Source: a virus. From it: a stretch of DNA of 64,000 nucleotides. Below the pieces are notes generated by a model. It made no database searches. It had not been told where the DNA came from and worked only from the letters and a program-made list of their open reading frames with translations. The stretch lies in IMG/VR virus record IMGVR_UViG_3300020048_000085; one strand, written 5' to 3'. This document shows, piece by piece, positions 3,754 to 63,020 of this stretch (positions within the stretch are counted from its first letter, which is position 1; each line of letters opens with the position of its first letter). The position numbers were made by a program, and so were the translations under genes.

Positions 3754-3762
3754 TATTAATTA

Positions 3763-16621: not shown

Positions 16622-16624
16622 AAG

Positions 16625-18436: not shown

Positions 18437-18442
18437 ATAATT

Positions 18443-18826: not shown

Positions 18827-18828
18827 AT

Positions 18829-20322: not shown

Positions 20323-20324
20323 AA

Positions 20325-20498
20325 TTATAATTTTATTTTTGATGTATTTATTCCACATTTATTAAAATAATCTAGCATTGCAAATTCTATATATTTTGAC
20401 TTGTTTGTAGTACTATCTAAAATCAAATCGTGTAATTCTGGAGACATAGAAATAGAAATTCTTATTTTTCTATCTTCTTCTTTTTTTAATGTTTTCAT
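20325..20498 (-). CDS. Small ribbon-helix-helix (CopG-like) protein immediately upstream of the GIY-YIG gene
   Basis: A 57-codon ORF (MKTLKKEEDRKIRISISMSPELHDLILDSTTNKSKYIEF...KIKL) with a beta-strand/helix-helix pattern. It is a paralog of the ORF at 63024..63182 and is too short for the ORF track. Confidence 0.35.
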   Translation of the reverse strand: MKTLKKEEDRKIRISISMSPELHDLILDSTTNKSKYIEFAMLDYFNKCGINTSKIKL

Positions 20499-25700: not shown

Positions 25701-26855
25701 ATGGTAATAAACGTAAAGAGTGAGACTGCAATGTCTGGATTTTATATTATATTTAAAGGATCAACTATGAATGAAAAACCTGGTTGGTATGGAATTAGTC
25801 ACCTATGTGAACATATTCTTTGTAAGGCTATATTTCATTTACAAGATACATATCAACAAAAAAATATAAAATGGAATGCATATACTTCGGTAGATACTGT
25901 AGTTTTTTATATGACAGGGATTGATAGACACATAAACAAATATAAAAATGATTTTTTAAATTTATTATTAGATTTTAAACCTACACAAAAACAATTGGAT
26001 AATGAAAAGAAAATTGTTTTAGAAGAGTATAAAATGAGTTTCAATTCACAAATTGAATCTCACTATTTTAATTTACAGAGAAAGATGTTAAGTTATTATA
26101 ATCCTATTGGACTCAGATCTGATATTGAAAATATAACATTACAAGATTGTAATGATTATTTAGATTTATATTTTAAGAATCCAACAAAAATAATAAATGT
26201 ATCAAAATTTAATGATTTTGAAACAGATATAAAATTCAAAGTTGAGATAGATGTTAAACCATTTGAATTTAAAATAAATGATAATTTGTATATTATAACA
26301 TCTGACGATAATACAGATGTACCTAAAGGTATGATACCATTAGAAATTATCACAGAATTTAAAAATAAAGTTAGTATAATTGATGTCTCAACTATGCTTA
26401 CAAAAGATTTTGCATATGCATCATTTGTGTGTGAGATGTTAAGTTCAGGTTTAAATTCTCCATTATATAAAGAGGTTAGAGAAAAATTAGGATTAGTTTA
26501 TTACATAAGTTGTTCATTAGATAAATTAAATGATAAATCTTGTTCAATAAGTATTATCACTAACACATCTAAAAATAATATTGAACGTGTACAACATGAG
26601 ATAAAGAATATATTACAAAACAAAGAAATATATTTAACTCAAGAAAGATTTGATATCATAAAAGATAAGCAACTCACAAAAATTGAAGAAAATGAGATTT
26701 TAAATAATAATATTTCTAAATATATGGAAAATCCTGAATGGATGATTGAAAATATTATAAACACTATAACATTAGATGATGTGTATAGAGTGGTTGATGA
26801 ATATCTAAATTGGGATAATATGTATAAATCTGTAGATATTAATGAATTTTCTTAA
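25701..26855 (+). CDS. M16-family (insulinase/pitrilysin/MPP-like) zinc metallopeptidase
   Basis: An inverted zinc-binding motif HxxEH in the typical context GISHLCEHILCK, close to the N-terminus. The size is consistent with one M16 active unit. Confidence 0.55.
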   Translation: MVINVKSETAMSGFYIIFKGSTMNEKPGWYGISHLCEHILCKAIFHLQDTYQQKNIKWNAYTSVDTVVFYMTGIDRHINKYKNDFLNLLLDFKPTQKQLDNEKKIVLEEYKMSFNSQIESHYFNLQRKMLSYYNPIGLRSDIENITLQDCNDYLDLYFKNPTKIINVSKFNDFETDIKFKVEIDVKPFEFKINDNLYIITSDDNTDVPKGMIPLEIITEFKNKVSIIDVSTMLTKDFAYASFVCEMLSSGLNSPLYKEVREKLGLVYYISCSLDKLNDKSCSISIITNTSKNNIERVQHEIKNILQNKEIYLTQERFDIIKDKQLTKIEENEILNNNISKYMENPEWMIENIINTITLDDVYRVVDEYLNWDNMYKSVDINEFS

Positions 26856-26967
26856 TTAATATATAAATATATTTTTTTAACTATATTATAAATCACTAAT
26901 TATCAATAAGTTATAATTATTATTCAAAATATATAATAAAATGTTTTTTTATTATGATTATTATTAG

Positions 26968-26975
26968 TAAATTTG
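26968..26975 (+). promoter_or_regulatory. Weak TAAATTTG (TAnnTTTG-type) candidate promoter upstream of clpS
   Basis: It matches TAnnTTTG about 50 nt upstream of the clpS ATG. There is no clear -33 TTTG. Confidence 0.2.
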
Positions 26976-27026
26976 CACTGTCAATTAATAATTAAAAATT
27001 ATAATAAAGTTAATATATAACAAATT

Positions 27027-27323
27027 ATGGAAATAAACACAAAAACCAAGTCTTTGGAAGAAATTTTATCTGAGAATGGAATTTCTACAAACACAGAAAA
27101 AGAAAGTAAATTGATATTATGGAATGATGATGTCAACTCTTTTGAATGGGTAATAATATGTTTAATAATGTATTTAAAGTTTACACCAGAAAGAGCAGAA
27201 ACAACAGCTTATAATGTTCATCTTAAAGGAAAAGATATTATTAAAACTGGCTCAAAAGAAGATTTAGAGCCATATAAAAAATTACTAGAAGAAAGAGGAT
27301 TAAGTTTAACAATAGAAACATAA
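27027..27323 (+). CDS. clpS: ClpS, the N-degron (N-end rule) adaptor for ClpA/ClpC
   Basis: LILWNDDVNSFEWVI...AYNVHLKGK aligns with the ClpS core, including the NDD substrate-pocket residues and the conserved His. It has the size and operon position of canonical clpS-clpA. Confidence 0.8.
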   Translation: MEINTKTKSLEEILSENGISTNTEKESKLILWNDDVNSFEWVIICLIMYLKFTPERAETTAYNVHLKGKDIIKTGSKEDLEPYKKLLEERGLSLTIET

Positions 27324-27324
27324 A

Positions 27325-27555
27325 ATGAAAAAAATAATAATAAATTATATTTTATATGTTTATCACAATTATATTCAAAATGATGAATTTGATAATATAT
27401 ATAAAGAGTGGGCTAAACCTTTTATGATGGTACTTAAATATATACACAATGTATACATGTGGATATTTTGTATTATATTTTTTCCAGTTATTTTAATCTT
27501 AATGATGATTGATAGCTATATGAAAAAAAATAGAAAAAAAATAAAAAAATTATGA
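27325..27555 (+). CDS. Small hydrophobic protein between clpS and the unfoldase gene
   Basis: 76 aa with a predicted TM helix (IFCIIFFPVILILMMI). It is tightly packed with ATGA-type overlaps on both sides. Confidence 0.35.
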   Translation: MKKIIINYILYVYHNYIQNDEFDNIYKEWAKPFMMVLKYIHNVYMWIFCIIFFPVILILMMIDSYMKKNRKKIKKL

Positions 27556-30095
27556 ATTATTCAAAAGATGTAGAATTTGCGATTAAAACAAGTAAGGATA
27601 TTGCTATTAAAATTGGCTCAAATACAATTAGACCTGAGCATATTTTTTTAGCTATGATTGAGGATGAATATTCTGACGCATGTCTTATTATGAAAGAGTT
27701 AAACTTAAATGTTGACGCAATCAAACAGACTATTTATCAGTGGTCTATGGTTGAACAATCAGGTAAAGGAATAAACAATCTTAGGAAAAATGCAGCAATT
27801 CCTCTTGATATGGAAACAGAGAAAATATTAAAAAGTTCTGTTGTTTTTGCCAAATCAATGGAATCAGATGACGTAGAGATTGATCATGTTTTTTATTCAA
27901 TTTTAGATAATGAAAACAATATAGTTAATTTATTATTAAATAAATCGCCTGGTATTTTAAATAGTTTAAAACGTAGATTGAAGAATGAAGATATTGATGA
28001 TTATACAAACAACTTAAATGAAGATAGTATGGAAGAAGGTATGGAAGAAGGAGAAGTAAAAACAGATTCAAAAAATAAATCAAAAACAAAATTACTTGAT
28101 CAATTTGGTACAAATTTAACAAACTTAGCAAAAGAAGGTAAGTTAGATCCAGTGGTTGGTCGTGTAAATGAGATTAAAAGAATCTCACAAATTTTATCCA
28201 GACGTAAGAAAAATAATCCTGTTTTGATTGGTGAGCCAGGTGTTGGTAAATCAGCTATTGCTGAAGGAATTGCTCAATTAATTGCAGATGGTAAAGTACC
28301 TGAAAATTTACAAAACAAGAGAATCATCACACTTGATATGGGTTCGTTAGTTGCGGGAACTAAATATAGAGGTGAGTTTGAGCAAAGAATGAAAGGTATT
28401 GTTAAAGAAATGGAAGAGAATAGTGATATTATTCTTTTCATTGATGAGATACATACTATTATTGGCGCTGGAGCATCACAAGGATCTCTAGATGCATCTA
28501 ATATGTTAAAACCAGCTTTGGGAAAAGGTACTTTTAGATGTATTGGTGCAACAACATTAGATGAATATCGTAAATATATTGAAAAGGACCCAGCATTAGA
28601 ACGTAGATTTCAAAAAGTTATAGTTGATTCTACTACAAAATCTGAAACATTAGAAATTCTTAAAAATATAAAAGCTCAATATGAGACTCATCATAAAGTT
28701 AAATATACTGATGACGCTTTAATCGCTTGTGTAGAATTATCAGATAAATACATATCAGACAAATTTTTACCTGATAAGGCAATTGATGCACTTGATGAAG
28801 CAGGTGCTATGGTTCATGTTAATAGAACAAGTGATATTCCAGATAAATTAGTAAATCTAAATAATAAAATCAAAGAATCTACTATTTTAAAATTAGATTG
28901 TGTAAAAAATCAAAAATTTGAATTGGCTGCTGAACACAGAGACAATGAGAAACAATGGAAATTAGAAGTTGATGAAATAAGAACAAATTGGAAGCAAGAA
29001 ATATCTAATACTATATCAACTGTAACTAAAGATGATGTGGCAGCAGTTATTTCACTTATGACAAAAATTCCAATTGATAGTGTATCTACAGATGAAAATG
29101 ATAAACTTATCGGTATGCCAGAAAAAGTTAAAAAACTTGTTATTGGTCAAGATGACGCAGTAGATAAAATTGTACAATCTGTTAAAAGATCAAGAATTGG
29201 ATTAAATAGCCATAATAAGCCAGTAGGTACATTTATTTTCTTAGGACCAACAGGAGTAGGTAAAACATACTTAGCAAAAATTATGGCAAAAGAATTATTT
29301 GGTTCCGAGGATTCATTAATTAGAATAGATATGAGTGAATTTATGGAGAAATTTTCTGTATCTCGTTTAGTTGGTGCACCTCCAGGATATGTTGGATATG
29401 AAGATGGTGGAAAATTAACAGAAGCAGTTAGACGCAAACCTTATTCAATTGTTCTTTTCGATGAAATGGAAAAAGCTCATTCAGATGTTCAAAATATTTT
29501 ACTTCAAGTATTAGATGATGGTTTTTTAACTGATAGTAATGGTCGCAAAGTTGATTTTAGAAATACTATTATTATTATGACATCAAATGCTGGTTCTAGA
29601 AAAGTAAAAGATTTTGGGAATGGTATTGGATTTGGTAGTATCTCTTCAAATAATCAAGAAAAGAGAAATGATGTTATAAAAAAAGAACTCGAAAAATTAT
29701 TTAGTCCAGAGTTTTTAAATAGAATTGATGAAATTGTAAATTTCAACTCTTTAAGTAAAGAAAATATCATTTCTATTATTGATGTAGAATGTAAATATTT
29801 GATTAATAATCTTAAAGAAAAAGGTTATGATGTCACAATATCAAACTCACTTAAAGATTACTTAGTTGAAAATGGATATGATGAAAATTATGGTGCAAGA
29901 CCACTCAAGAGAGCAATACAAAAACATATTGAAGATAGACTTATAGACGCTATCATAAGTAAAGAAATTGCTGTAGGTGATACAATATCATTATTATATG
30001 ATACTGAAAGTCAATCTGTTAAAATTTCAAAATTATCACCAAACTTTTTGGTTGATAATGTATTAAAATTAAATGAAAGTACTCCTGAAGTTTAA
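27552..30095 (+). CDS. clpC: ClpA/ClpC-type Hsp100 AAA+ unfoldase (Clp_N domain, two AAA modules, IGF ClpP-docking loop)
   Basis: Clp N-domain at the N-terminus. Walker A motifs GEPGVGKSAIAEG and LGPTGVGKTYLAK. A short UVR-like linker rather than a ClpB M-domain. SNAGSRKVKDFGNGIGFGS aligns with the ClpA IGL ClpP-binding loop, which is absent from ClpB. Confidence 0.85.
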   Translation: MNYSKDVEFAIKTSKDIAIKIGSNTIRPEHIFLAMIEDEYSDACLIMKELNLNVDAIKQTIYQWSMVEQSGKGINNLRKNAAIPLDMETEKILKSSVVFAKSMESDDVEIDHVFYSILDNENNIVNLLLNKSPGILNSLKRRLKNEDIDDYTNNLNEDSMEEGMEEGEVKTDSKNKSKTKLLDQFGTNLTNLAKEGKLDPVVGRVNEIKRISQILSRRKKNNPVLIGEPGVGKSAIAEGIAQLIADGKVPENLQNKRIITLDMGSLVAGTKYRGEFEQRMKGIVKEMEENSDIILFIDEIHTIIGAGASQGSLDASNMLKPALGKGTFRCIGATTLDEYRKYIEKDPALERRFQKVIVDSTTKSETLEILKNIKAQYETHHKVKYTDDALIACVELSDKYISDKFLPDKAIDALDEAGAMVHVNRTSDIPDKLVNLNNKIKESTILKLDCVKNQKFELAAEHRDNEKQWKLEVDEIRTNWKQEISNTISTVTKDDVAAVISLMTKIPIDSVSTDENDKLIGMPEKVKKLVIGQDDAVDKIVQSVKRSRIGLNSHNKPVGTFIFLGPTGVGKTYLAKIMAKELFGSEDSLIRIDMSEFMEKFSVSRLVGAPPGYVGYEDGGKLTEAVRRKPYSIVLFDEMEKAHSDVQNILLQVLDDGFLTDSNGRKVDFRNTIIIMTSNAGSRKVKDFGNGIGFGSISSNNQEKRNDVIKKELEKLFSPEFLNRIDEIVNFNSLSKENIISIIDVECKYLINNLKEKGYDVTISNSLKDYLVENGYDENYGARPLKRAIQKHIEDRLIDAIISKEIAVGDTISLLYDTESQSVKISKLSPNFLVDNVLKLNESTPEV

Positions 30096-34810: not shown

Positions 34811-36355
34811 TTAAAAATTATTTGAATATATCATTTTTAAATTACCAGAATCATATATTCTATAATATTTTAGTTCTAACATTATTTCATGTTCTGTTTT
34901 ATTAGAATCGTATCCATTTTTAATTAATATGTTTTTCTTGAAATTGAATCTATTATACCTAATATTATCAATTATATAATAATATTCAGGATTGGTAATA
35001 CTATTCAATTCAAATCCAATTTTTTCATATTTATCTATATTGTTTTTTGTTCTATCTATATGAACTATTATTTTATCATGATTATAATTATTAATAAAAT
35101 AATTAAAAAGTGCTGATATACTATCTATTATATTAGTATTAATTTTATTACAAAATCTTAACATCTCATAATTATTATTTTTATCTTTGTTTTTTATCAT
35201 ACCAAATATCATAATACTAACTAATTCATTTTTATAAAAAAGTCCAATTTTTACTTTAGAGCCAATATATCCTTGAATATGATTAGTATTAAGAAAATAT
35301 TTAACTAATTTATCATCAAAAATTTCTTTTATTTCACAATCAGTAATATCAATATTGTTTTCTAGTAAATATAATTTGTTTAATATCAAAGATTTAATCA
35401 AATCTTGTTTATATAACCACTCATCTTCAAAAATATGAATTAATTGTACTCCTTTTTTTTCACATAAATTAGTTTTATTTAAATGATAATTATTTTCTTT
35501 ATATAATTCAGAATGCCAATGTATTCCATTAAACTCAAATGCTAATTTTAAATCAGGTAAATATATATCAATTTCATATGGTTTAGTAATATTCTTAGAA
35601 TTTAATATTATTATACCATTATAATTATCACTAATAAAATTTTTAAGTTGAATTTCAAGTCCTGATATTTGTTTTGATACAGGATTACAAGTTGTACATA
35701 ATATAGTATTACATTTTTTCCTGGCATAAAAAAGAGTATCATTAATTAAATAATTATTATCACAAATATCACAATGAGCTAAATAATTATGATCTATAAC
35801 ATCAATTATATTATTGTCTATTATCATTTGTTCTCTAATTTTTAAATTATATTTTTTTCTAAATTCTTTATGTTGAAATGTGTTTTTTACTCCATATCTT
35901 TCTATATTTGTTTTTTCTATTTTGTTTTTGAATTCATCATATTGAATAGCAAATTCAACATTATATTTTTTTAACATACTAGATTTCATAAGTTCTATAT
36001 TTTGAAGAGGAGTAGCATAACCATATCTTTCTATGTTTGTATTCTTTTGTTTTTCTTTACATTTATCTAATTTAGATGGATATTCTATTCCATATCTTTC
36101 TAAATTTGTTCGTCTCATTTTTTTTAACACATCTTTATTTTGCGTTGTAGCAACGCAACCATATCTTTCTAAATTAGTAATTTTAGCTTTTTCTGCTGAA
36201 CATTTATGACAATAGCATTTTTCTATCATTCCTTTTGTTATTTTAAAATATGTTCTATATTCCATTTCTTTCTCTCTACCACATATATCACAACTAGTAT
36301 TTATAATATAATGACTACCTTTTGTTAATTCTGTTTGTAATTCTGTTAGTATCAT
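34811..36355 (-). CDS. Putative homing-type endonuclease: N-terminal Cys cluster, at least 5 tandem N[IL]ERYG repeats, and a C-terminal Vsr/PD-(D/E)xK-like nuclease fold
   Basis: Repeats TNLERYGC..., TNLERYGIEY..., TNIERYGYAT..., TNIERYGVKN... The C-terminal EIDIYLPDLKLAFEFNGIHWHSE resembles the Vsr FxDGxFWH core. Confidence 0.45.
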   Translation of the reverse strand: MILTELQTELTKGSHYIINTSCDICGREKEMEYRTYFKITKGMIEKCYCHKCSAEKAKITNLERYGCVATTQNKDVLKKMRRTNLERYGIEYPSKLDKCKEKQKNTNIERYGYATPLQNIELMKSSMLKKYNVEFAIQYDEFKNKIEKTNIERYGVKNTFQHKEFRKKYNLKIREQMIIDNNIIDVIDHNYLAHCDICDNNYLINDTLFYARKKCNTILCTTCNPVSKQISGLEIQLKNFISDNYNGIIILNSKNITKPYEIDIYLPDLKLAFEFNGIHWHSELYKENNYHLNKTNLCEKKGVQLIHIFEDEWLYKQDLIKSLILNKLYLLENNIDITDCEIKEIFDDKLVKYFLNTNHIQGYIGSKVKIGLFYKNELVSIMIFGMIKNKDKNNNYEMLRFCNKINTNIIDSISALFNYFINNYNHDKIIVHIDRTKNNIDKYEKIGFELNSITNPEYYYIIDNIRYNRFNFKKNILIKNGYDSNKTEHEIMLELKYYRIYDSGNLKMIYSNNF

Positions 36356-37477: not shown

Positions 37478-38638
37478 ATGAACAAAGAATTAATTGAAGG
37501 AGTAAATATTGGAAATTTACCTGATCCATTTCCATACTTAAACAACAATAAAATTAGAAAAATCAAAAGTTCTGGTGATCTTAATGAAGAATACAGGGCA
37601 ATGTACGAAAAAATGGAATTATCTTTATCGACAACTAAAGAAGTTAGAGTAAATGAGGTAGTTACAGGTACAATAAAATCAATAAACCAAAAAGAAATTT
37701 TAATTGATTTTGGATTTAAAGATTTTATATATGTTGAAAAACCAAAATTAAATACAGTAATTACAGAATTAGTAACAGGTGAGATTATTGATGTATTAAT
37801 CACTAGTGTATCAGAAAAACCATATTTAATAAAGGGTTCTATAACTGAACTTATCAAGCAGAATGTTCATAATAAAATGAAATCTTATTATGACGGTAAT
37901 TTAACACTTATTGCAGAAGTTAAATCAATTATTCCAGCAGGATATAATATGAATATTATTATGGATAATGTTAAGATAGAAGCATTTATGCCAAATACAC
38001 TAGCAGATGTAAACAAATTAACAGACTCTGAATCTATCTTAGGTTCAACATTTGAAGTTATGTTAGAAACATTACAACAAGAAAAAGGAGTATATGTTGT
38101 ATCAAGAAGAAAGTATTTACAATCATTAATACCAGAAGAAATAACTAAATTAAAACATGATATTGTTTATCAAGGTTATATTACAGGCACAACACCATTT
38201 GGAATATTTGTTCAATTTAAAGCAACAGAAGATGGTCCTAATTGCTTAACTGGTATGGTTCATAAAGCTAATATTGCAGAAAATTGGCAAAGTAAATGGG
38301 ATAGTATACTTCCTGGTATGACAATCGAATTTTATGTTAAAGAAGTAATAAAAGGAAATAAAATAATCTTAACACAAATATTAAAAGAATCCTTATGGGA
38401 TAGTATTAAAGTTGGCAAAATATTAACTGGTAAAATAAGAGTAATTAAAAATTTTGGTGCACTTATAGCATTAGATGATGAAACTACTGGTTTAATTCAA
38501 ACGTCATATATTAATAGATATGATAAAAAATTAAATGTTGGTGATGAAGTTAAAGTTAAAGTAATATCTTTAATAAAAGATGATAGAAAAATTTATCTAA
38601 ATTTCGCTGATGCAAAATACAAAAGAGATGATGTATAA
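37478..38638 (+). CDS. Ribosomal protein S1-like protein with four S1 (OB-fold) domains
   Basis: Repeated S1 signatures, for example YQGYITGTTPFGIFVQFKATEDGPNCLTGMVHKANI and LTGKIRVIKNFGALIALDDETTGLIQTSYI...VGDEVKVKVISLIKDDRKIYL. Confidence 0.6.
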   Translation: MNKELIEGVNIGNLPDPFPYLNNNKIRKIKSSGDLNEEYRAMYEKMELSLSTTKEVRVNEVVTGTIKSINQKEILIDFGFKDFIYVEKPKLNTVITELVTGEIIDVLITSVSEKPYLIKGSITELIKQNVHNKMKSYYDGNLTLIAEVKSIIPAGYNMNIIMDNVKIEAFMPNTLADVNKLTDSESILGSTFEVMLETLQQEKGVYVVSRRKYLQSLIPEEITKLKHDIVYQGYITGTTPFGIFVQFKATEDGPNCLTGMVHKANIAENWQSKWDSILPGMTIEFYVKEVIKGNKIILTQILKESLWDSIKVGKILTGKIRVIKNFGALIALDDETTGLIQTSYINRYDKKLNVGDEVKVKVISLIKDDRKIYLNFADAKYKRDDV

Positions 38639-38640
38639 AA

Positions 38641-38672
38641 AAAGAGAGAATCAAATGATTCTCTCTTTTTTG
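38641..38672 (+). terminator. Intrinsic terminator after the S1-like gene
   Basis: Stem gagagaatc / gattctctc (38644-38665) with loop aaat and a T-run of 6. Confidence 0.65.
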
Positions 38673-38721
38673 TTTATATTGTTTCTGTATATTATATCAA
38701 TAATATAATCTTTTTTATTTT

Positions 38722-38757
38722 TAATAAAAAAAACACCACAAATTGTGGTGTTTTTTA
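38722..38757. terminator. Bidirectional intrinsic terminator (serves nusG on the minus strand)
   Basis: Stem acaccaca / tgtggtgt with a 3-nt loop, an A7 run upstream and a T5 run downstream. Confidence 0.6.
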
Positions 38758-38764
38758 ATGATAA

Positions 38765-39283
38765 CTAATCTAAATCTTTAATAAATTGTGTTCCAATTAA
38801 ATCTAATATAACTTCTCTGTCGAATACATTAACTGCAACTTTATATTTTTGTTTTTGTTTATTAATATCAATATTCTTTATAACACCTTTGAATGTATTA
38901 AATGGACCATCAATTATTCTTACTTTTTCTTTAATATAAAAAACATCTATATCACTAACAACATCATTAGATGGTGTTTTATCTAATAATCTATTAACTT
39001 CAGATTCTCTTAATGGTTTAGTCAATAATGATTGAACACCATCTATATATTTAACAAATCCAGCAACCTCATTTACCAAATCACATTCAACAAAAATATA
39101 ACCTGGAATAATAATTTTTTCTACATTTATTTTTTTACCATTTCTTAATTGTTGAGCTTTATTTGAAGGTACTAATATATTTATTATTAAATTATTTAGT
39201 TCTTTTCTTTTTAATTCAGCTTCAATTAATTCTTTTACTTTTTTTTCTTTACCATTTGCAACTTTTATAACATACCATTTCAT
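38765..39283 (-). CDS. nusG: NusG-like transcription antitermination/elongation factor (NGN + KOW domains); the start is at the internal Met (MKWYVIKV), not the 39337 start of the longest ORF
   Basis: NGN domain WYVIKVANGKEKKVKELIE... and KOW motif VRIIDGPFNTFKGVIKNIDI...KVAVNVFDREV. The 18-codon upstream extension is rejected because it runs into a 16-bp perfect terminator hairpin. Confidence 0.7.
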   Translation of the reverse strand: MKWYVIKVANGKEKKVKELIEAELKRKELNNLIINILVPSNKAQQLRNGKKINVEKIIIPGYIFVECDLVNEVAGFVKYIDGVQSLLTKPLRESEVNRLLDKTPSNDVVSDIDVFYIKEKVRIIDGPFNTFKGVIKNIDINKQKQKYKVAVNVFDREVILDLIGTQFIKDLD

Positions 39284-39327
39284 GTTTTTTATTTTATTTT
39301 TATAATTATTATATAAACATTTAAAAT

Positions 39328-39362
39328 AAAAGTTCAAAAAATATTATATTTTTTGAACTTTT
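39328..39362 (-). terminator. Strong intrinsic terminator (16-bp perfect stem) between two minus-strand genes
   Basis: aaaagttcaaaaaata - tta - tattttttgaactttt. On the minus strand it is followed by a U-rich tract. It lies between 39367..39837 and nusG. Confidence 0.65.
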
Positions 39363-41714: not shown

Positions 41715-42281
41715 ATGATAGAATTTTTTAACTCTCTAGATATGTTTAGTAAAACATTATTTTTTATGGCTTTTGGAACAGGTGTATTATTTATTATCCA
41801 AAATTTAATTGTGTTTTTAGGAATGGATCATGATAGTGATATTGATACTGATTCAGATATTGATTCAGAACACAACTCTGGTAAATCATTTGGTTGGTTT
41901 TCATTTAAAAACGTTGTTAATTTTATTCTAATTTTTTCATTAGTAGGATTAATAACAGTAGGTTCTGGAATATCAAAACCAGTATCATTATTAATAGCAT
42001 CAATAGCAGGTATTATATTTGTTTATGTGATGATATTATTATTCAATCTAATGAAAAAACTCTCTCAAGATAATACACCAACATTAACTGATTTAGTTGG
42101 AGAAACTGGTGTAGTATATTTAAAAATACCTGCAGTAGGAAATGGAAAAATAAAAATAATGCATGGCGGAGCAATTCAAATATTAGATGCGTGTTCAGAA
42201 GGTATAGTAATCACAAGAGATTCAAATGTTAAGGTGTCTAAAATTGTAGGACATACTATAATAGTAGAAGAAATAAAATAA
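41715..42281 (+). CDS. NfeD-like membrane protein (short form, YuaF/YqiJ-like) partnered with flotillin
   Basis: N-terminal transmembrane helices plus a C-terminal beta-rich OB-like segment (GVVYLKIPAVGNGKIKIMHGGAIQILDA). It sits immediately upstream of an SPFH protein, as in bacterial nfeD-floT operons. Confidence 0.55.
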   Translation: MIEFFNSLDMFSKTLFFMAFGTGVLFIIQNLIVFLGMDHDSDIDTDSDIDSEHNSGKSFGWFSFKNVVNFILIFSLVGLITVGSGISKPVSLLIASIAGIIFVYVMILLFNLMKKLSQDNTPTLTDLVGETGVVYLKIPAVGNGKIKIMHGGAIQILDACSEGIVITRDSNVKVSKIVGHTIIVEEIK

Positions 42282-42328
42282 TCAATAAAAATAATTTATA
42301 AATAAAAACAATTTAATTTAAAAAAAAC

Positions 42329-43831
42329 ATGAGTAGTACATTAACGTTAATTTTAATCGTAGTAGTTGCGATTTCAGTATTTTCAATTATTGTTGCCTTA
42401 GTAAAAAGGTACAAACGTTGCCCATCAGATAAACTTTTAGTTATTTATGGTAAAACAGGCAAAACTGATGGTAAAGCATCAGCAGCAAAAGTAATTCATG
42501 GTGGTGGTGCATTTGTTTGGCCAGTCATTCAGGATTATACTTTCTTAGATTTGAAACCAATTTCAATTGATATTAATTTGAAAGGTGCATTATCTAAACA
42601 AAACATACGTATTGATGTTCCATCAGTATTTACAGTTGCAATATCAGGTGGAGATGGAATACGTGAGAATGCTGCTGAGAAATTACTTGGACTTCAAAAA
42701 CAAGAAATAGCACAATTAGCACAAGATATTATTCTTGGTCAAATGCGTTTAGTTATCGCAATGATGAACATTGAAGAAATAAATGCTGACCGTGACAAAT
42801 TTCTTGAAAATATTCAAAAAAATCTTGAAGATGAGCTTCAAAAAATTGGTCTAAGACTTATTAATGTAAATATCACAGATATTAGTGATGAATCAAACTA
42901 CATTAAATCATTAGGACAGAATGCAGCATCAGGAGCTATTAATGAAGCTGCAATTCAAGTTGCACAGAAGAATAAAGATGGTGCTATTGGTGTTGCAACA
43001 GCAGATAGAGAAAAACGTGTGAGTGTTGCTGCTGCGCAAGCAGAAGCACAAATTGGTGAAGCTGATGCAAGTCAAAAAATGAGAGCAGAAACTGCTGCAT
43101 TAAATGCAAAGGCTATTGCTGGTGAAAATAGTGCATTTGTTGAAATAGCAAAAACTAATGCTAGTAGACAAATTGCAGAAGCTGATGCAAAGAAAGACTC
43201 AGTTACTGCTGAAAATGTAAAAGCAGCAGAAGCAAAACAAGCATCATATGATGCTGAAAAATTAGCAGAAACAAAACGTGCTGAAAGAGATAAAGCAACT
43301 CAATATGCAAATATTGTTGTACCTGCTGAAATAGCAAAAGAAAAACTTATTGTTGAAGCTGCTGCAAATGCAGAATCAACTAGAGTAATTGCAAAAGGTG
43401 ATGCTGATGCAATGTTTGCTAAAATGGAAGCAGAAGCAAGAGGTATAAATGAAATACTAACAAAGCAAGCTGAAGGTTTTGCAAAGTTAGTTCAAGCTGC
43501 TGGTGGAGATGCTGCAAAAGCTGTTCAATTGATGATTGCTGATAAATTACCAGAACTTACAAGAATTCAAGTTGATGCTATCAAAAATATCAAATTTGAT
43601 AAGATTACAGTTTGGGATAATGGTGGAAATGGCTCAGGAAATTCTACTGCAAATTTTGCAAAAAATTTATTTTCAATGATTCCACCACTTACTGACATTT
43701 TCAAACAAGTTGGTGCTGAATTACCAGCATTTATGCAAGGTGCAGGAGAACAAAAAACAAATGAACTTGAAGCAGAAAACTCTGTCACTAAAGTAATAAA
43801 AGACGAAACAACTGATAATAGTAAATCATAA
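42329..43831 (+). CDS. Flotillin-like SPFH/band-7 protein (FloT/YqiK type) with Ala/Glu-rich coiled-coil repeats
   Basis: N-terminal TM anchor and an SPFH core (VIHGGGAFVWPVIQDYTFLDLKP...). There is a long EA-repeat region (AAQAEAQIGEADASQKMRAETAALNAKA...). GC is visibly higher than in the surrounding sequence. Confidence 0.75.
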   Translation: MSSTLTLILIVVVAISVFSIIVALVKRYKRCPSDKLLVIYGKTGKTDGKASAAKVIHGGGAFVWPVIQDYTFLDLKPISIDINLKGALSKQNIRIDVPSVFTVAISGGDGIRENAAEKLLGLQKQEIAQLAQDIILGQMRLVIAMMNIEEINADRDKFLENIQKNLEDELQKIGLRLINVNITDISDESNYIKSLGQNAASGAINEAAIQVAQKNKDGAIGVATADREKRVSVAAAQAEAQIGEADASQKMRAETAALNAKAIAGENSAFVEIAKTNASRQIAEADAKKDSVTAENVKAAEAKQASYDAEKLAETKRAERDKATQYANIVVPAEIAKEKLIVEAAANAESTRVIAKGDADAMFAKMEAEARGINEILTKQAEGFAKLVQAAGGDAAKAVQLMIADKLPELTRIQVDAIKNIKFDKITVWDNGGNGSGNSTANFAKNLFSMIPPLTDIFKQVGAELPAFMQGAGEQKTNELEAENSVTKVIKDETTDNSKS

Positions 43832-50200: not shown

Positions 50201-50617
50201 TTAATCTTCTTCTTGAATATCATACTGAACATCATCCTGAACATCATCTTCATCTAGAAATTCGATTTCGTCATCATCATCAATATTAATTAATTTAATA
50301 TCATCTGAATAAACAACATATTCTTTAAGTTTTTCTAATTCATCATAGAATTCTATCTCAGATAAATTATCTAGTATATCAGCCAATTCACCTTTAGATA
50401 GCTCATAATTTTCTTCATCTTTATATTCATCTAAAGATATTTCACCTTGAGTATCTAATATTTCTAATATTTGATCAATAGCATCATGCTTATATTCCCA
50501 AAATGATTCTGTTTCTCCATTTATTCTAACTTCCCATTTGTTGTCATTTTCATCTTGTGTATCATCAAGTATATTTTCTTTAACATAGTTAAATTCTGCA
50601 AATTTTTTAAGACTCAT
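50201..50617 (-). CDS. Highly acidic small protein (138 aa), candidate DNA-mimic / anti-restriction-like protein
   Basis: Asp/Glu make up about 35% of residues, with C-terminal DDDDEIEFLDEDDVQDDVQYDIQEED. There are no hydrophobic segments. Confidence 0.45.
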   Translation of the reverse strand: MSLKKFAEFNYVKENILDDTQDENDNKWEVRINGETESFWEYKHDAIDQILEILDTQGEISLDEYKDEENYELSKGELADILDNLSEIEFYDELEKLKEYVVYSDDIKLINIDDDDEIEFLDEDDVQDDVQYDIQEED

Positions 50618-50652: not shown

Positions 50653-51780
50653 TTATTTCAGTTTATCAATAATATCAATTATTTGTTCTAATGATAATCC
50701 TTGTTTCATATATTTATAAACATCAAATCTATCAACATCAAGGCTAGATTTATAATGTTTATATAATTCATTATTTAGTATATTATATTTATTTATATCA
50801 TCCATATTTTTAAACTCATTACCTTCATATCTTATTGATTCAATATTAATTGTTTCTTTTGGGTTGAAAATTGCATATGTATTATGATTATCTTCTTTTG
50901 CTACATATCCACTAAAACCAAGTGCTTTAATTGAACTAGAAACAGAATCATTTTCATAATATCTCCAAGTATTAGATAATTTTATATTTTTTGGTTTTTT
51001 ATTCCATGGTTTTTCTACAGTTTTTGAATAATCTTCCATCATATCTTTTTTACCAATTTCAAATAATTCAACACCTTTATTATATTCTTCATCTGTTAAT
51101 TCAAATCCACCATATGCCTTTTGATGTTTTCTACTAAGAAATAAACCTGTCAAATGATCAGATATATTATATATTGATACTCCTTTATTTTTAACTACAT
51201 CTTTAACATAATCAATAAATTCTTTAAAGTGTTTACGATACTCATATCCAAAGTGATGATTACCATATGATACTGATGATGCTCCTTCTAAATAATAATT
51301 AAAGTTTTTTTTGTCTATTGTATAAACATTATCATCATCTATTCTAACTACAATAAATTTATCAACAGGATATGATGGATCAGGAATTTCATCTCCAATT
51401 TTAGCAGTTAAAATATCAGGATTTGGCTCTATAATATCATCACCTTTTAATAATTCTAATATATCATCTTTTGTAAAATCATGCGGAAAACAAAAATTTG
51501 TCATATAACAAGTCACCTTATCAGGTAATTTATTTTTTAATTTTTGTAAATGTTCTCCATTGTTAGCATCAAATATTTCACCATTTAATTTACATATATA
51601 AACAATAGGCTCAGCATCCATTTCATTATCCATTGATTTTTCACTAGCATATTCCCAAGCAAATTTTGGATTATCTGAAAAAAATGTTATTCTATTTTTA
51701 AACTCACTAAATAAATACGGAGATCCATGATATAATACAAAATTTGACATCATTTTCTCAAAGGTTTTTAAATATTTCAT
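50653..51780 (-). CDS. Protein starting MKYLKTFEKM (FKxFE-family N-terminus) with a VLYHGSPYLF (H-G-S) motif; possible H-Y-E class ADP-ribosyltransferase or Tpt1-like enzyme
   Basis: It has the family N-terminus. The H-G-S motif immediately follows it, as in the PARP/DT-type nicotinamide pocket. The assignment is weak. Confidence 0.4.
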   Translation of the reverse strand: MKYLKTFEKMMSNFVLYHGSPYLFSEFKNRITFFSDNPKFAWEYASEKSMDNEMDAEPIVYICKLNGEIFDANNGEHLQKLKNKLPDKVTCYMTNFCFPHDFTKDDILELLKGDDIIEPNPDILTAKIGDEIPDPSYPVDKFIVVRIDDDNVYTIDKKNFNYYLEGASSVSYGNHHFGYEYRKHFKEFIDYVKDVVKNKGVSIYNISDHLTGLFLSRKHQKAYGGFELTDEEYNKGVELFEIGKKDMMEDYSKTVEKPWNKKPKNIKLSNTWRYYENDSVSSSIKALGFSGYVAKEDNHNTYAIFNPKETINIESIRYEGNEFKNMDDINKYNILNNELYKHYKSSLDVDRFDVYKYMKQGLSLEQIIDIIDKLK

Positions 51781-53768: not shown

Positions 53769-54078
53769 TATTATGATTATAGATAAAACATATGGAATTT
53801 GGGATTTAATAAATCCTCCAATAATTGATGATATTGCATATTATTTATGTATGAAAGATTATATTTTTTATTGTAATCATTGTATTTATTTAAATGATTT
53901 TAATGTTATAACAAAATATGATCCACCATGTCAAAGTTGGGTTAAAGTTGTAAGATGTTATAAATGGTGTGATAACATTGTTAATTATTATGAAAAAGCA
54001 ACACACATAGTAGAGAAAAAAATTAGAAAAGAAAAATTAACAAAATTATATAATGAAGAAAAAAGTGGTTGTTTTTAG
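53758..54078 (+). CDS. Small protein paralogous to 37155..37397 (IIDKTYGIWDLINP...DIAYYL ... RKEKLTKLYN)
   Basis: Shared N-terminal and tail motifs. Confidence 0.45.
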   Translation: MSFNIMIIDKTYGIWDLINPPIIDDIAYYLCMKDYIFYCNHCIYLNDFNVITKYDPPCQSWVKVVRCYKWCDNIVNYYEKATHIVEKKIRKEKLTKLYNEEKSGCF

Positions 54079-54718
54079 TGGAGCCGGATTAGATGCTGAA
54101 AGTGGAGTTTCAACTTTCAGAACAGATAACGGATTGTGGGAAAATTATGATGTAAAAGATGTTGCAAATATTGATGGATGGAGAAATAATAGACAATTAG
54201 TATTAAACTTTTATAATGAAAGACATAAACAATTAGATGCAGTAGAACCGAATTCTGCACATTATTATCTTGCTGAATTAGAAAAAAAACATGATGTTTT
54301 TCACATAACTCAAAATATTACAGATTTACTTGAACGAGCTGGTTGTACAAATGTGTTACACCTCCATGGAGAATTAACAAAAATGAGAGGATTTAATAGT
54401 GGAACAATTTATGATTGGGATAAAGACTTTGATATTCAAACTCATAGTGTAGATGAAAATGGTGATACACTTCGTCCACATGTAGTTTGGTTTGGAGAAG
54501 ATGTTCCAAACATGGTAAAAGCTGAGAAATTAGTTAGAGATGCTGATGTGTTAATTATTATTGGCACGTCTTTATTAGTTTATCCTGCAGCAAACTTAGT
54601 ATATAAAGTTAAATTTAGAACTCCTATATATTATATTGATCCATCAAATTCAGATATTGATGATGTTATACACATCAAAGATGTTGCAACAGATGGTGTT
54701 AAAAAATTAAATTTATAA
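54053..54718 (+). CDS. Sir2-family NAD-dependent deacylase / ADP-ribosyltransferase (sirtuin), apparently lacking the zinc-binding cysteines
   Basis: GAGLDAESGVSTFR, TQNITDLLERAG and LHLHGEL are present in the canonical order. No CxxC pairs are visible in the small-domain region. Confidence 0.75.
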   Translation: MKKKVVVFSGAGLDAESGVSTFRTDNGLWENYDVKDVANIDGWRNNRQLVLNFYNERHKQLDAVEPNSAHYYLAELEKKHDVFHITQNITDLLERAGCTNVLHLHGELTKMRGFNSGTIYDWDKDFDIQTHSVDENGDTLRPHVVWFGEDVPNMVKAEKLVRDADVLIIIGTSLLVYPAANLVYKVKFRTPIYYIDPSNSDIDDVIHIKDVATDGVKKLNL

Positions 54719-56436: not shown

Positions 56437-56673
56437 ATGAAGATTTTAAGAAAAAATGACATTTTTAAAAAAGTACCTGATAGTAGTATTGTTGATGCTG
56501 TCGCAATTAAAGGTTTTATTGAACAAGGTTGGAAATATTGCTCAAGAAAAGAATATAAAGAATTTTTCGGTGGTGTAAAAGATTTACAACAAAAAGATTT
56601 AAAATCTGAAAATATTAAACCAGAAGATAATATTCAACCAACAAAAAAGAAAAAACACGGTAAAAATAAATGA
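56437..56673 (+). CDS. Hypothetical small basic protein (78 aa)
   Basis: ORF with an ATGA overlap with def. Confidence 0.4.
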   Translation: MKILRKNDIFKKVPDSSIVDAVAIKGFIEQGWKYCSRKEYKEFFGGVKDLQQKDLKSENIKPEDNIQPTKKKKHGKNK

Positions 56674-57107
56674 TTTTAGATATAATTAAGTATACTGATA
56701 CATATTATGGAAAATTGAGAAAACCTAATGTTGATGTTAAAAAAGAAAATCCTTTTTTAAATCAATTAATTAAAGATATGTTTGAAACTCTTAATTATTA
56801 TAAATTTGAATTTGGATTATCTGCACCACAAGTTGGACACAATTTAAATTTATTTGTTATCAATACTCCTGATTTAAAAGAAGTTTTTATTAATCCAGAA
56901 ATACATCTTGAAGGCTTAATTATACAAAATAAAGAAGAATGCCTGAGTTTTCCTGGTATGCAATTTGCAGCAAATAGAAGAAGTAATATCGAAATTAAAT
57001 ATTATGATAGTGATTGGAATCTTAGAATATGTAAATATAAAGATTTAAATTCAATCGCAATACAACATGAATATGATCACTTAAAAGGTAGATTAATAAT
57101 TGACTAA
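56670..57107 (+). CDS. def: Peptide deformylase
   Basis: All three PDF motifs are present: GLSAPQVG (GxGxAAxQ-like), EECLSFPG (EGCLS) and IQHEYDHLKG (QHExDH). Confidence 0.85.
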   Translation: MILDIIKYTDTYYGKLRKPNVDVKKENPFLNQLIKDMFETLNYYKFEFGLSAPQVGHNLNLFVINTPDLKEVFINPEIHLEGLIIQNKEECLSFPGMQFAANRRSNIEIKYYDSDWNLRICKYKDLNSIAIQHEYDHLKGRLIID

Positions 57108-59915: not shown

Positions 59916-61787
59916 ATGAGTGTGTCAGAAATATATAAATTACTAGAAAACGATTTGTTTTCAGAAGCTTCTATTGAAATTAAGAAACTAAATCAGAAAT
60001 ATCGTGATGGTGATCCTCAAATTAGTGATATAGATTATGATAAATTGATTGAATTGTTTCAAAGATTAGATCCAGATAATGAATTTTTTAAATCATCTGT
60101 TGTTGATGATGTTAATCCTGATAGAAAAGAAGCTTTGAAATTTCCAATGTTCTCTTTGGATAAATATCATTCTATTGAAGATATTCATAAGTGGTTAAAT
60201 AATAAAGGAATATCACTAGATGTAGAATTAGTTTGTACATCAAAGTATGATGGTATATCTATTCTTAAAGATGAATTTAATCAACTTGCATGGTCAAGAG
60301 GTGATGGTTTAGTAGGTGAGACTATGCATGAACATTGTAAAAAATTAAAATCTGATAATAAGAAAATCGATTTATTTACTATTGGAGAGATGCTTTTTTC
60401 AAAACCTTTTTTTAATAGTAAAATATTTTATAGAGATAATGGTGAACCATTTAAAAATGCTCGTAATATGATTGCAGGACTTAAAAATTCTGATACAGTA
60501 TCAGAATATTTAGTTGATGCTAAACATATTCGTTATGGATATGCTAATGAAGATTTTTCATTGAATAAATCTGAACAATTAGATTTTATTAATGAAAATT
60601 TCTCTACTGTACCATACAAAATAATTAAAGCAAAAGAATTGAATATTGATATGTTAAATGAGCTTTTTGTTAAGTGGGGCGAAGAGTATGATATTGATGG
60701 ATTAGTCTTTGATATTGATGATAAAAATATCAGAAAAAATCTAGGTCGTGAAAGGAACAACAATCCAGCATATGCCAGAGCGTTTAAAAATCCTCAATGG
60801 TCAGAAGCAAAAGAAACTATAATTCTTGATATAGAATGGAATATCAGTAAGAACGGATTACTTAAGCCAGTTGGAATATTACAACCTATTGATTTAGAAG
60901 GTGTTATAGTTTCAAGGGTGACATTGAACAATGCGAAGTTCGTCAAGGACTTCTGCATTGGAAAGAACACAATTTTGAAAATTTTGAGATCTGGTTTTGT
61001 CATACCAAAAGTGCAGAGTATTATAAAATCTACTGGATATGTTGAACCTGTTGTTGGAAACTCAAAAGTTTTCTGGAACGAAAATGGTGTAGAATTGATG
61101 GTTGAAGGTACGGAAGAACAGGAAATCAAAAAACTCATTTCTTTTTTTGAAATTCTTGGTGCAGAAAACGTGTCAGAAGGTATTATTAATCAATTGTATA
61201 ATTCTGGTTATAAAACTATTAAACAAATTTTAGATTTGACAACTGATGATTTAGAAAAACTTGAACGCTTTGGTGAACGGAAATCACAAATCGTTTTTCA
61301 ATCCATACATAATGCGGTTACAGACTTAAAATTATCTAAACTTATGCATGCAACAAATATTTTTAAAAATCTAGGATCGAAGAAACTTGATTTGTTGATG
61401 CATTTTGAAGGTAAACCAACATTTGAAGAAATACTTAAAGTCGATGGGTTTTCTGATATCTCAGCAAAAGCATATCTTGATGGATATGATGAATTTTATA
61501 ATTGGTTAAGTGATATGACAAAAATAACTATAGAAACTAAAAAAGAAAAAAACATTATGGAAAAAAATGATTTAGAAGGAACAGTATGGGTGTTTACTGG
61601 AATTCGATTAAAAACTGCTGAAGAATTGTTAATTGATAGAGGTGCAAAAATTACAACCTCTGTAAGTAAGAATACCACTCACTTGGTGTGTAAAGATCCA
61701 AATAGCGGATCAAGTAAATTGCTGAAAGCTATTGAGTTAGGTGTAGAAATTATGAGTGTAGAAGACTTTGAAGATTTTTTAAGTTGA
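59916..61787 (+). CDS. ligA: NAD-dependent DNA ligase (LigA type) with a C-terminal BRCT domain; no tetracysteine zinc-finger module is visible
   Basis: N-terminal Ia-like helical domain. Adenylation motif I TSKYDGISI (KxDG). OB and HhH regions. A C-terminal BRCT (WVFTGIRLKTAEELLIDRGAKITTSVSKNTTHLV). No Cys4 cluster lies between the OB and HhH regions. Confidence 0.88.
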   Translation: MSVSEIYKLLENDLFSEASIEIKKLNQKYRDGDPQISDIDYDKLIELFQRLDPDNEFFKSSVVDDVNPDRKEALKFPMFSLDKYHSIEDIHKWLNNKGISLDVELVCTSKYDGISILKDEFNQLAWSRGDGLVGETMHEHCKKLKSDNKKIDLFTIGEMLFSKPFFNSKIFYRDNGEPFKNARNMIAGLKNSDTVSEYLVDAKHIRYGYANEDFSLNKSEQLDFINENFSTVPYKIIKAKELNIDMLNELFVKWGEEYDIDGLVFDIDDKNIRKNLGRERNNNPAYARAFKNPQWSEAKETIILDIEWNISKNGLLKPVGILQPIDLEGVIVSRVTLNNAKFVKDFCIGKNTILKILRSGFVIPKVQSIIKSTGYVEPVVGNSKVFWNENGVELMVEGTEEQEIKKLISFFEILGAENVSEGIINQLYNSGYKTIKQILDLTTDDLEKLERFGERKSQIVFQSIHNAVTDLKLSKLMHATNIFKNLGSKKLDLLMHFEGKPTFEEILKVDGFSDISAKAYLDGYDEFYNWLSDMTKITIETKKEKNIMEKNDLEGTVWVFTGIRLKTAEELLIDRGAKITTSVSKNTTHLVCKDPNSGSSKLLKAIELGVEIMSVEDFEDFLS

Positions 61788-61794
61788 TGAATTA

Positions 61795-61828
61795 AAAAAC
61801 GTGGTGTATTATGCACCACGTTTTTTAT
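61795..61828. terminator. Bidirectional intrinsic terminator between ligA and the convergent GIY-YIG gene
   Basis: Stem aacgtggtg / caccacgtt followed by T6. Confidence 0.6.
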
Positions 61829-63020
61829 ATTTTGGAAAAAATTCATCTAACCAACCATTAATAGAAGAATAATTATATGCACTCCAAACACTTTTTCGAA
61901 ACTCACATCTAGAATTATATTTTTTAGATTCTTTTTCACACAATTCTTTATTATTCCAATATCTAAATATTGTTTTTGTTCTTATTGGATCAAGTAAATG
62001 TTGCCAATCTTTTTTTAGAATTGTAGTATATGCTCCTCCTGAATATTTAATAAAATCTGATAATTTTTCATATTTTTCGACTTCAATTTTACAAGATTCT
62101 ATTGTCCATTTTAAATCATGTGAACCAATTCCACCAGTTTTAACTTCATTTAATAATATCCATCCATTATTTTTATAATCATTAAGAGTTTCACCTTCTA
62201 ATAAAATTGCCAAATCAACATCTATGTAATCTGATTTTATTTTCAAAATAGGTTTCAGATTTGTTTCGTTCATATATTTTTTTACTGAACTTTTATCTTT
62301 TCCTATAATGTGCTGATTATTTCTTCTTTTTATATTTCCAGTTAACCCTACATAACAATGATTATCAGAAAATTCATAAGTATATATTAAACGTTTATAT
62401 TTATTTCCAATTTTCTTCAAATGTGATAATAATTCTAACCAATTTTCTTTATAAATTTTATTGTGTGCTGATACATATTTACTTTTCAACTCCTTTTTTG
62501 TCTCACATTTTAATGCAACTTCTTTACATTTTTCATAAGTCCAATAATTGTTACATTTTACTATCTTCATAGTTTTTGGCATCAATTCACTCCAATTATT
62601 TTTTAATATTTTTTCATATGCTGAACTACACTTACACTTTAATTCTGTGTTAGTTTTACAACTAGATGATATTTCTTTACACTTTTCATATGTCCAATAA
62701 TTTTTAGGTTTTTTATTTTCAAAAAAGTGTGAAAACAATTCTATCCAATTATTTTTCAAAATATTTCTATATGCGGAGCCATACAATAACATAAATTTGG
62801 TTATGCTCTCACATTCTAAAGCGGCATATTTACAATTTTCGTAATCCCAATATCCTTTTGGTTTTTTTCTCGCTATAATATGTGATATTAATTCATTCCA
62901 TTCATTCTTATTAATTGTATAATATGCGGTATAATATTTATTTTTTAATTCATTTTTGCTGGTGCATTACAACGCAGCTTCTTTACATTTCTCATATGTC
63001 CAATAATTTTTAGGTTTCAT
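61809..63020 (-). pseudogene. GIY-YIG endonuclease with tandem YEKCKE..LKC..ELK repeats, interrupted by a single in-frame TAA (plus-strand 62967..62969); the intact ORF is 61809..62792
   Basis: GIY-YIG core LIYTYEFSDNHCYVGLTGNIKRRNNQH. Reading the minus strand from the ATG at 63020 gives MKPKNYWTYEKCKEAAL, then a stop, then CTSKNELKNKYY...; this is in frame with and continuous into the 61809..62792 ORF. The repeat consensus shows a Lys codon at the stop position (AAA changed to TAA). Confidence 0.45.

Follow-up and report, generated by a model that had tools for sequence, protein, structure and literature searches.

Within a 64,000-nucleotide (nt) stretch of viral DNA, IMG/VR record IMGVR_UViG_3300020048_000085, which as a whole is called the window here, we confirmed two open reading frames (ORFs) of the minus strand, 50653..51780 and 4545..4907. 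They encode proteins of 375 and 120 amino acids (aa), respectively, each of which opens with a short leader (the tag, see below) and carries the motif L-Y-H-G-S or L-Y-H-G-T close behind it, at residues 16–20 of the 375-aa protein and 35–39 of the 120-aa protein, as an earlier note on this DNA had observed. That note took H-G-[ST] for the nicotinamide-binding motif of H-Y-E ADP-ribosyltransferases (ARTs) of the PARP and diphtheria-toxin type or of Tpt1/KptA RNA 2'-phosphotransferases. According to our analysis, both proteins very probably possess the ART fold and a pocket for nicotinamide adenine dinucleotide (NAD+). The kinship of the 375-aa protein is with ART-PolyVal and AcrIF11, and that of the 120-aa protein is with the NAD lobe of Tpt1 and with ART-PolyVal.

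The 375-aa protein begins MKYLKTFEKMMSNFVLYHGSPYLF, and its H18-G19-S20 is encoded at nt 51721..51729. The 120-aa protein reads MIKIFEDY...YIYLYHGTNKNNF, with H37-G38-T39 at nt 4791..4799; its ORF has a GTG start, which overlaps the upstream stop as GTGA. Since the GC content of the window is only 22.8%, i.e., the DNA is very AT-rich, His and Gly are scarce in its ORFs. There are three occurrences of HG[ST] among all window ORFs that are 50 aa or longer, and LYHG[ST] was seen twice, both times close to the N-terminus, against 0.0076 occurrences expected in the 21,884 ORF residues of the window.

The source of the window is a huge AT-rich phage. The best match of its fused Mre11/Rad50-like protein (42.5% identity) is a 735-kb uncultured phage record, followed by jumbo phages of Bacteroidota and Sphingomonas, and viral contigs of up to 640–780 kb carry relatives of both proteins. 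The parts of the two genes are collected in Table 1, together with the run of tagged genes to which the smaller one belongs.

Table 1. Coordinates of the two genes, of their predicted parts and of the neighbouring tagged genes
Feature	Coordinates	Strand	Details
375-aa tagged protein, split ART-PolyVal/AcrIF11-like ADP-ribosyltransferase fold	50653..51780	-	
Full tag, MKYLKTFEK	51754..51780	-	residues 1-9
ART core, N-terminal half	51565..51747	-	residues 12-72; from model secondary structure, conservation, Pfam and hhalign
Insertion of about 195 residues, alpha/beta and helical	50980..51564	-	residues 73-267; model elements 75-267
ART core, C-terminal half	50821..50979	-	residues 268-320; WRYYE276N, LGFS290GYVAKE296, NTYAIFNP
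C-terminal helical bundle	50656..50805	-	residues 326-375; absent in about a third of homologues
120-aa tagged protein, minimal ART-fold domain like the Tpt1 NAD lobe and ART-PolyVal	4545..4907	-	
Shortened tag, MIKIFE	4890..4907	-	
ART domain of the 120-aa protein	4566..4838	-	residues 24-114; N43, I47, G51, F58 (Tyr position), Y69, D95
Run of four tagged genes, including the small ART	3313..5809	-	overlapping or near-abutting ORFs
Run member, 301 aa	4904..5809	-	
Run member, 261 aa	3763..4548	-	
Run member, 146 aa	3313..3753	-	

Fold and kinship of the two proteins

The AlphaFold model of the 375-aa protein is confident (pLDDT 89.7) and places H18 within a strand formed by residues 15–20. 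Residues 1–11 are disordered and, having a pLDDT below 50, lie outside the fold. The model of the 120-aa protein has strands at residues 24–27, 30–39, 58–60, 79–86, 90–93 and 96–99, the second of which contains H37. Nearly all structures matched by the two models have the ART fold, Tpt1, PARPs and diphtheria toxin among them, and both proteins show the split beta-sheet of the ART fold with its NAD-binding arrangement of strand 1, strand 2 and helix. Because both models match ART folds and HG[ST] lies in strand 1, the outcome that would have spoken against the proposal, namely no ART or Tpt1 fold and a motif located in a loop or helix, was not what we observed. That HG[ST] comes directly behind the tag is due to the fold itself, which begins with strand 1.

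Contrary to the earlier note, which spoke of two family members, the two proteins do not constitute one family. When they were compared by hhalign (probability 91%, E 1.2e-6, 50 columns), only the half from strand 1 to strand 3 was shared, i.e., the N-terminal half of the ART core. Membership in the PARP, diphtheria-toxin or Tpt1 families was not borne out either, the nearest family being ART-PolyVal/AcrIF11 with its H-Y-D configuration. Thus, the view of HG[ST] as an NAD motif located in strand 1 of an ART fold holds, while its assignment to the H-Y-E or Tpt1 class does not. The proposed contact with nicotinamide was not supported either; the H-x-T of Tpt1 contacts the adenosine ribose instead (PMC8464070).

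The ART core of the 375-aa protein is split by the large insertion. Its N-terminal half comprises strand 1 with H18-G19-S20, strand 2 (TFFS, with F33 at the Tyr position), the helix FAxxY44, strand 3 and a short strand IFD, and its C-terminal half, in which S290 occupies the Asp column, can be aligned to GYDG[IV] ... VAFxPxQIK of canonical ART-PolyVal. The insertion is placed where AcrIF11 and canonical ART-PolyVal have a variable helical insert, as judged from the alignment to canonical domains and from the published description of AcrIF11 (PMC12421852). Residues 73–267 gave no Pfam or PHROG match, and we infer that they might form a target-recognition module.

We found 53 homologues of the 375-aa protein. 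Invariant in this family are L16, Y17, H18, G19, F24, F27, F34, F40, Y44, K48, D55 and Y61 in the N-terminal half and G113, E276, G291, E296, T301, Y302 and P307 in the remainder; the His of HGS was invariant in 28/28 homologues. ART-PolyVal is the top Pfam match for both window proteins, and in a Foldseek comparison of the 375-aa protein with viral models, ART-PolyVal-like phage proteins rank first. The match of the intact protein is limited to residues 15–47 (profile positions 8–48, 18.2 bits). With the insertion spliced out, all 20 of the 20 family members tested match PF18760 from about position 8 to 128 of its 140 positions (best E 1.4e-5), and the spliced core of the window protein itself reaches 24.3 bits, the gathering cut-off of this model being 31.2 bits. 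The hhalign comparison of the spliced core with canonical ART-PolyVal gave a probability of 93.7% (E 3e-8, 108 columns), and the pattern HG[ST]xxxFxxF is common to the two. It is also important to mention that in three homologues (P0020, P0033 and P0034), a copy of the 375-aa module comes after a canonical ART-PolyVal domain. The sequence profiles of the 375-aa family, whole and spliced, had no meaningful PDB match, and a scan of GTDB genomes with this family yielded no relative.

Relatives of the 120-aa protein numbered six in a word-indexed search and 91 cluster representatives in a full HMMER search. ART-PolyVal matches 28 of 40 members of this small family and PARP matches 10 of 40, with E values of up to 0.01; for the window protein, the ART-PolyVal score is 24.7 bits. 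The profile comparison called for by the earlier note gave a divided answer: at the level of sequence, the small-family profile matches the NAD lobes of solved Tpt1 structures (E 2.8e-6 for Runella Tpt1 and 1e-3 for archaeal Tpt1), but neither window protein reaches the Pfam cut-off of PARP, Tpt1 or ART-PolyVal. Residues H37, G38, T39, N43, I47 and G51 pair with RslTpt1 H99, G100, T101, N105, I109 and G113, which bind the adenosine ribose and adenine of NAD+ (PMC8464070). The same residues are the most conserved positions among 106 domain instances (H37 in 106, T39 in 105, I47 in 102, G38 in 100, N43 in 86 and G51 in 82), and about 70% of them have D or E at position 102. The RNA lobe of Tpt1 and its Arg-His-Arg-Arg tetrad are absent from the 120-aa protein, in which the domain is preceded by no more than about 30 residues, folded into one helix and one strand. 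The window protein has no match to Pfam Tpt1 (PF01885), and PHROGs and NCBIfam gave nothing for either the 375-aa or the 120-aa protein.

The mini domain of the small family also occurs as part of larger proteins. It is found just upstream of canonical ART-PolyVal both in the LPD22-bearing polyvalent proteins P0099, P0127 and P0143 and in the shorter proteins P0074, P0081 and P0098; in P0083, an R-S-E-like segment is fused in front of it. In P0063 (L006 7422..9473, plus strand) and P0068, it is fused to the head domain of CCA-adding enzymes/poly(A) polymerases, with an additional N-terminal GNAT domain in P0063. Such fusions suggest a possible RNA- or tRNA-related role for some members of the mini-ART family. 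Relatives of the two window proteins are also located inside polyvalent proteins with LPD22 and GNAT domains.

The N-terminal tag and the surrounding genes

The N-terminal tag is real: its pattern, M[KIRV]..[FILR][KR..].[FY][EDN], opens 15 of the 119 window ORFs of at least 60 aa, against 0.19 expected. Two flavours can be distinguished, MKY[IL]KxFE / MKH[IL]RxFE and MITQFKxFE. The tag codons differ at synonymous sites, and the tag is borne by unrelated folds, among them ankyrin and ART folds as well as unknown ones. It is also present in related contigs, and homologues on other contigs of AT-rich huge phages bear the same tag; that of the 120-aa protein is three residues shorter than in its homologues (MIKKIKVFE, MIIEFKIYE). 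A hydrophobic-x-Glu leader within the first 13 residues was present in 33 of 54 (61%) stand-alone small-family representatives versus 15 of 104 (14%) untagged window ORFs. The T4 capsid-targeting sequence, a 10-residue leader (PMC9026906), is similar to the tag in its length (about 10 residues), position, terminal Glu and occurrence on unrelated proteins (PMC9026906), but the letters of the tag (MKY[IL]KxFE, MITQFKxFE) are different.

Further tagged small ORFs (about 105–145 aa) form arrays at 13701..15502 (plus strand) and 16301..19248 (minus strand), have a C-terminal KKFNL/KFNI in common and are arranged such that the stop of each ORF overlaps the next start at a conserved TTTAATTTATGA junction. 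One member of these arrays, 16625..17239, is an ankyrin-repeat protein (Ank_2, E 5e-27).

Three of the four genes in the run around the 120-aa ORF are kept in a related contig (L004), in a changed order and without the 261-aa gene. In the window, the latter overlaps the small ART gene by 4 nt, and its tagged product shows a C-terminal YRG ... WTTS ... EESEV pattern as in R-S-ExE ARTs, which makes it a motif-level candidate. No Pfam, NCBIfam, PHROG or PDB match was found for this protein, and its similarity to the R-S-E-like segment of P0083 is marginal. The 301-aa neighbour (KLYHIFD) was considered as another ART and rejected, since its hhalign probability stayed below 2% with each of the three ART profiles.

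Immediately downstream of the 375-aa gene there is a very acidic 138-aa ORF (50201..50617, minus strand). It is retained in a close, 66%-identical relative (L012; 33% D+E there) and does not stand beside distant homologues. Its candidacy as a conserved immunity partner was rejected, since it is conserved in close relatives only. In L012, the 375-aa homologue is separated from the acidic ORF by an additional tagged protein of 125 aa (9458..9835, plus strand; MITTFNKFD...YIYHGTGRG), which the window lacks. An hhalign probability of 78% (E 1.8e-5) relates this protein to the mini-ART family. Another tagged ORF, encoding 166 aa, was noticed at 4583..5083 (plus strand) of a 723-kb contig (L002) with the homologue P0052. 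It reads ...VTIRGV...GKGLYTAALSNKDLA and has an ART-PolyVal-like strand-2 motif, but with Arg at the place of the strand-1 His.

Within 10 kb of the 375-aa ART there are genes for a Sir2-family protein (54053..54718, plus strand; PF02146, E 3e-40) and an NAD-dependent DNA ligase (59916..61787, plus strand). As these two are also encoded in the window, the phage carries several NAD-using enzymes, in agreement with what the earlier note had anticipated.

Host-like genes that are unusual in a phage were recognised at 25701..30095, 37478..39337, 41715..43831 and 56670..57107 from reading the translations only. They would encode M16-peptidase-like, ClpS-like, ClpA/B-like ATPase (847 aa), S1-domain and NusG-like proteins, an NfeD and flotillin pair and a peptide deformylase; a Pfam ClpS call was obtained on the gene of a relative. 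Three other proteins (19303..20358, 34811..36355 and 61809..62792, all on the minus strand) consist of repeated modules of the type K..F......AY..A....W.DE.C.HM with a core that looks GIY-YIG-nuclease-like by eye; these are probably mobile nuclease genes.

Possible activity and comparison with known systems

ADP-ribosyltransferases are enzymes that phages use to modify host molecules, and phage-delivered ARTs, such as T4 Alt, AcrIF11 and the ARTs of polyvalent proteins, reprogram or disarm the host. Taken as a whole, the explanation that we consider probable, by a modest measure, is that both proteins are NAD+-binding ART-fold proteins, delivered by means of the tag, which transfer ADP-ribose to a host target. 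NAD+ would be bound with the His and Ser/Thr on the adenosine ribose and with an aromatic residue (F33/Y44 in the larger protein, F58/Y69 in the smaller one) against the nicotinamide side. Nicotinamide would then be expelled and ADP-ribose passed to the host target early in infection, in the manner of T4 Alt, AcrIF11 and the ARTs of polyvalent proteins. Selection of the target would fall to the 195-residue insertion in the case of the 375-aa protein. In the minimal 120-aa protein, where no catalytic acid is conserved, it is tempting to suppose that the acceptor provides the nucleophile, e.g., an RNA phosphate, or that a partner ART contributes. The most speculative step is that the shared leader of about nine residues ending in Glu might act like the T4 capsid-targeting sequence, leading to packing into the head and injection. 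For actual ADP-ribosyl transfer, the chances appear evenly balanced, the activity being uncertain because the H-Y-E/H-Y-D triad is incomplete; delivery in the virion through the tag is a tentative suggestion that we would sooner doubt than assert.

Several observations weigh against transfer and delivery of this kind. The published configuration of ART-PolyVal consists of His in strand 1, Tyr in strand 2 and Asp in strand 5 (PMC5512222), and the downstream Tyr and Glu for which the earlier note proposed to look are not in place, as the Tyr is Phe in both window proteins and the acid column holds Ser290 in the larger protein and is variable in the small family. At the Tyr position of the 375-aa protein (F33), 26/28 homologues have Phe and 2/28 have Tyr; the column in which S290 aligns with the Asp of GYDG contains Asp in 12/28 and Gly in 9/28. 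Glutamates E276 and E296 are invariant in this family. In the small family, position 58 is aromatic in 102/106 domain instances (W 44, Y 30, F 28), with F58 in the window protein, and no conserved catalytic acid was found among the 106; position 95, where the 120-aa protein has Asp, varies across the family between a gap, G, D, N, S and E, and its equivalence to GYDG is uncertain. Both proteins stay below the ART-PolyVal cut-off (18.2 to 24.7 versus 31.2 bits). When 50,697 deposited phage genomes were searched by tblastn with both proteins and with two distant members of the small family, 0 matches were obtained, so neither family has an experimental anchor there. We recognised no prohead protease of the T4 type in the window that would support packaging by means of the tag, and since many tagged ORFs are small tandem paralogues that also have the C-terminal KFNL in common, the tag could have another purpose.

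A missing or unconserved third catalytic residue (S290; the variable position 95) and the replacement of Tyr by Phe would also be in line with ART-fold pseudoenzymes, which bind NAD+, ADP-ribose, an ADP-ribose-derived immune signal or a host protein and, without any transfer of ADP-ribose, serve as sponges, decoys or scaffolds. The adenosine-binding residues are indeed the best-conserved part, and the mini domain is often found beside a canonical, probably active ART in one polypeptide, similar to an accessory module. We regard this possibility as rather unlikely, albeit one to be taken seriously: several PARPs with I, L or Y at the Glu position are listed as mono-ADP-ribosyltransferases (table in PMC7955679), the Tpt1 clade is likewise without a catalytic acid (PMC7955679), and the invariance of E276, E296, K48 and D55 in the 375-aa family suggests that, outside the adenosine pocket, a further active or binding site has been conserved.

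The likeness of the 120-aa protein to the Tpt1 NAD lobe might also be read as a Tpt1-like role on nucleic-acid phosphates, either the removal of an RNA 2'-phosphate or the ADP-ribosylation of RNA or tRNA ends, in the service of tRNA repair or sabotage. However, the N-terminal RNA lobe bearing Arg-His-Arg is absent, the segment in which RslTpt1 Arg119 lies is missing from the small family (PMC8464070), strand 2 carries an aromatic residue and not the His of the H-H-h clade, and there is no Pfam Tpt1 match, all of which makes such a role improbable. Slightly less probable still is a broader scenario in which a clade of AT-rich huge phages uses the leader generally as a signal for packaging into the head, loading more than 15 different small effectors, and the injected minimal ART modifies RNA/tRNA phosphates or works with the adjacent R-S-E-type ART, rather than being a classical protein-modifying ART.

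An NADase or NAD+ phosphorylase similar to RES/MbcT toxins, which would lower host NAD+ or counter an NAD-based defence, seems highly improbable. Matches of the RES/MbcT type do occur among the ART-fold structures, but their scores do not exceed those of transferases; in sequence, neither protein resembles the RES family, and there is no conserved antitoxin-like partner, the downstream acidic ORF being present in close relatives only, and the phage's own Sir2 and NAD-dependent ligase need NAD+. Finally, a chance match of HG[ST] in unrelated proteins, which the shortness of the motif and the lack of homology over the whole length might suggest, is refuted by the motif statistics (LYHG[ST] 2 versus 0.008 expected), by the His being invariant in 28/28 homologues of the 375-aa protein and in 106/106 instances of the small family, and by the ART-fold matches obtained independently with both models.

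Overall, ADP-ribosyltransferase-fold effectors remain our preferred reading of both genes. It would extend the ART repertoire of phages to uncultured huge phages in two compact forms: an AcrIF11-like core with a large insertion probably choosing the target, and a minimal NAD-binding ART of about 85 residues that has conserved the same residues as the NAD lobe of Tpt1. If the leader is a packaging signal, the injected effector set of these phages could be read directly from sequence. The result is a solid annotation and not a new principle.

Among known systems, the H-Y-E ARTs of the PARP/diphtheria-toxin type are set apart from the window proteins by the Pfam PARP cut-off and by the catalytic Glu at the start of strand 5, neither of which the window proteins attain. 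Tpt1/KptA resembles the small family only, in the His-x-Thr motif and adenine-stacking residues of its NAD lobe; it differs in that strand 2 of the 120-aa protein carries an aromatic residue, not His, and in that the ART core of the 375-aa protein starts as early as residue 12. With T4 Alt the likeness is one of concept, a phage ART delivered with the DNA (PMC9026906, PMC5512222), but T4 Alt belongs to the R-S-E clade, unlike the window proteins. AcrIF11, an anti-CRISPR of phages and plasmids (PDB 6KYF, 8DWQ), is active as a phage ART, and in it H20/Y46 are followed by a variable helical region and then by D/E (PMC12421852). The 375-aa protein has the same layout, with an insertion about four times longer, and in AcrIF11 the Tyr and the D/E pair were shown to be necessary; sequence similarity of the 375-aa protein to AcrIF11 was not detectable.

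The closest parallel is ART-PolyVal (PF18760; Tox-ART-HYD2 clade), the ART domain of polyvalent proteins from phages and conjugative elements, whose ARTs are predicted virion-delivered effectors (PMC5512222). The 375-aa family shares with it the series HG[ST]xxxFxxF ... aromatic-F-[ST] ... GYxG[YIV] ... [AV][IV]FxP, a helical insert between strand 3/4 and strand 5, and phage origin, and some relatives are fused to canonical copies. Strand 2 of ART-PolyVal is GIYFT with Tyr, of which both window proteins keep the aromatic ring without the hydroxyl. In the 375-aa protein, the Asp of GYDG is replaced by Ser, at a position that is unconserved in the family, and the insert of about 195 residues has an alpha/beta part of its own; the 120-aa form has no insert and falls about 50 residues short of the 140 positions of the model. 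Moreover, both window proteins are stand-alone with a short leader, not domains of a giant polypeptide. With these variant features, i.e., a core that is split by a 195-residue insert and has lost the Asp in the one case and a minimal Tpt1-lobe-like form in the other, both proteins are divergent additions to the known ART-PolyVal/AcrIF11-like group of phages.
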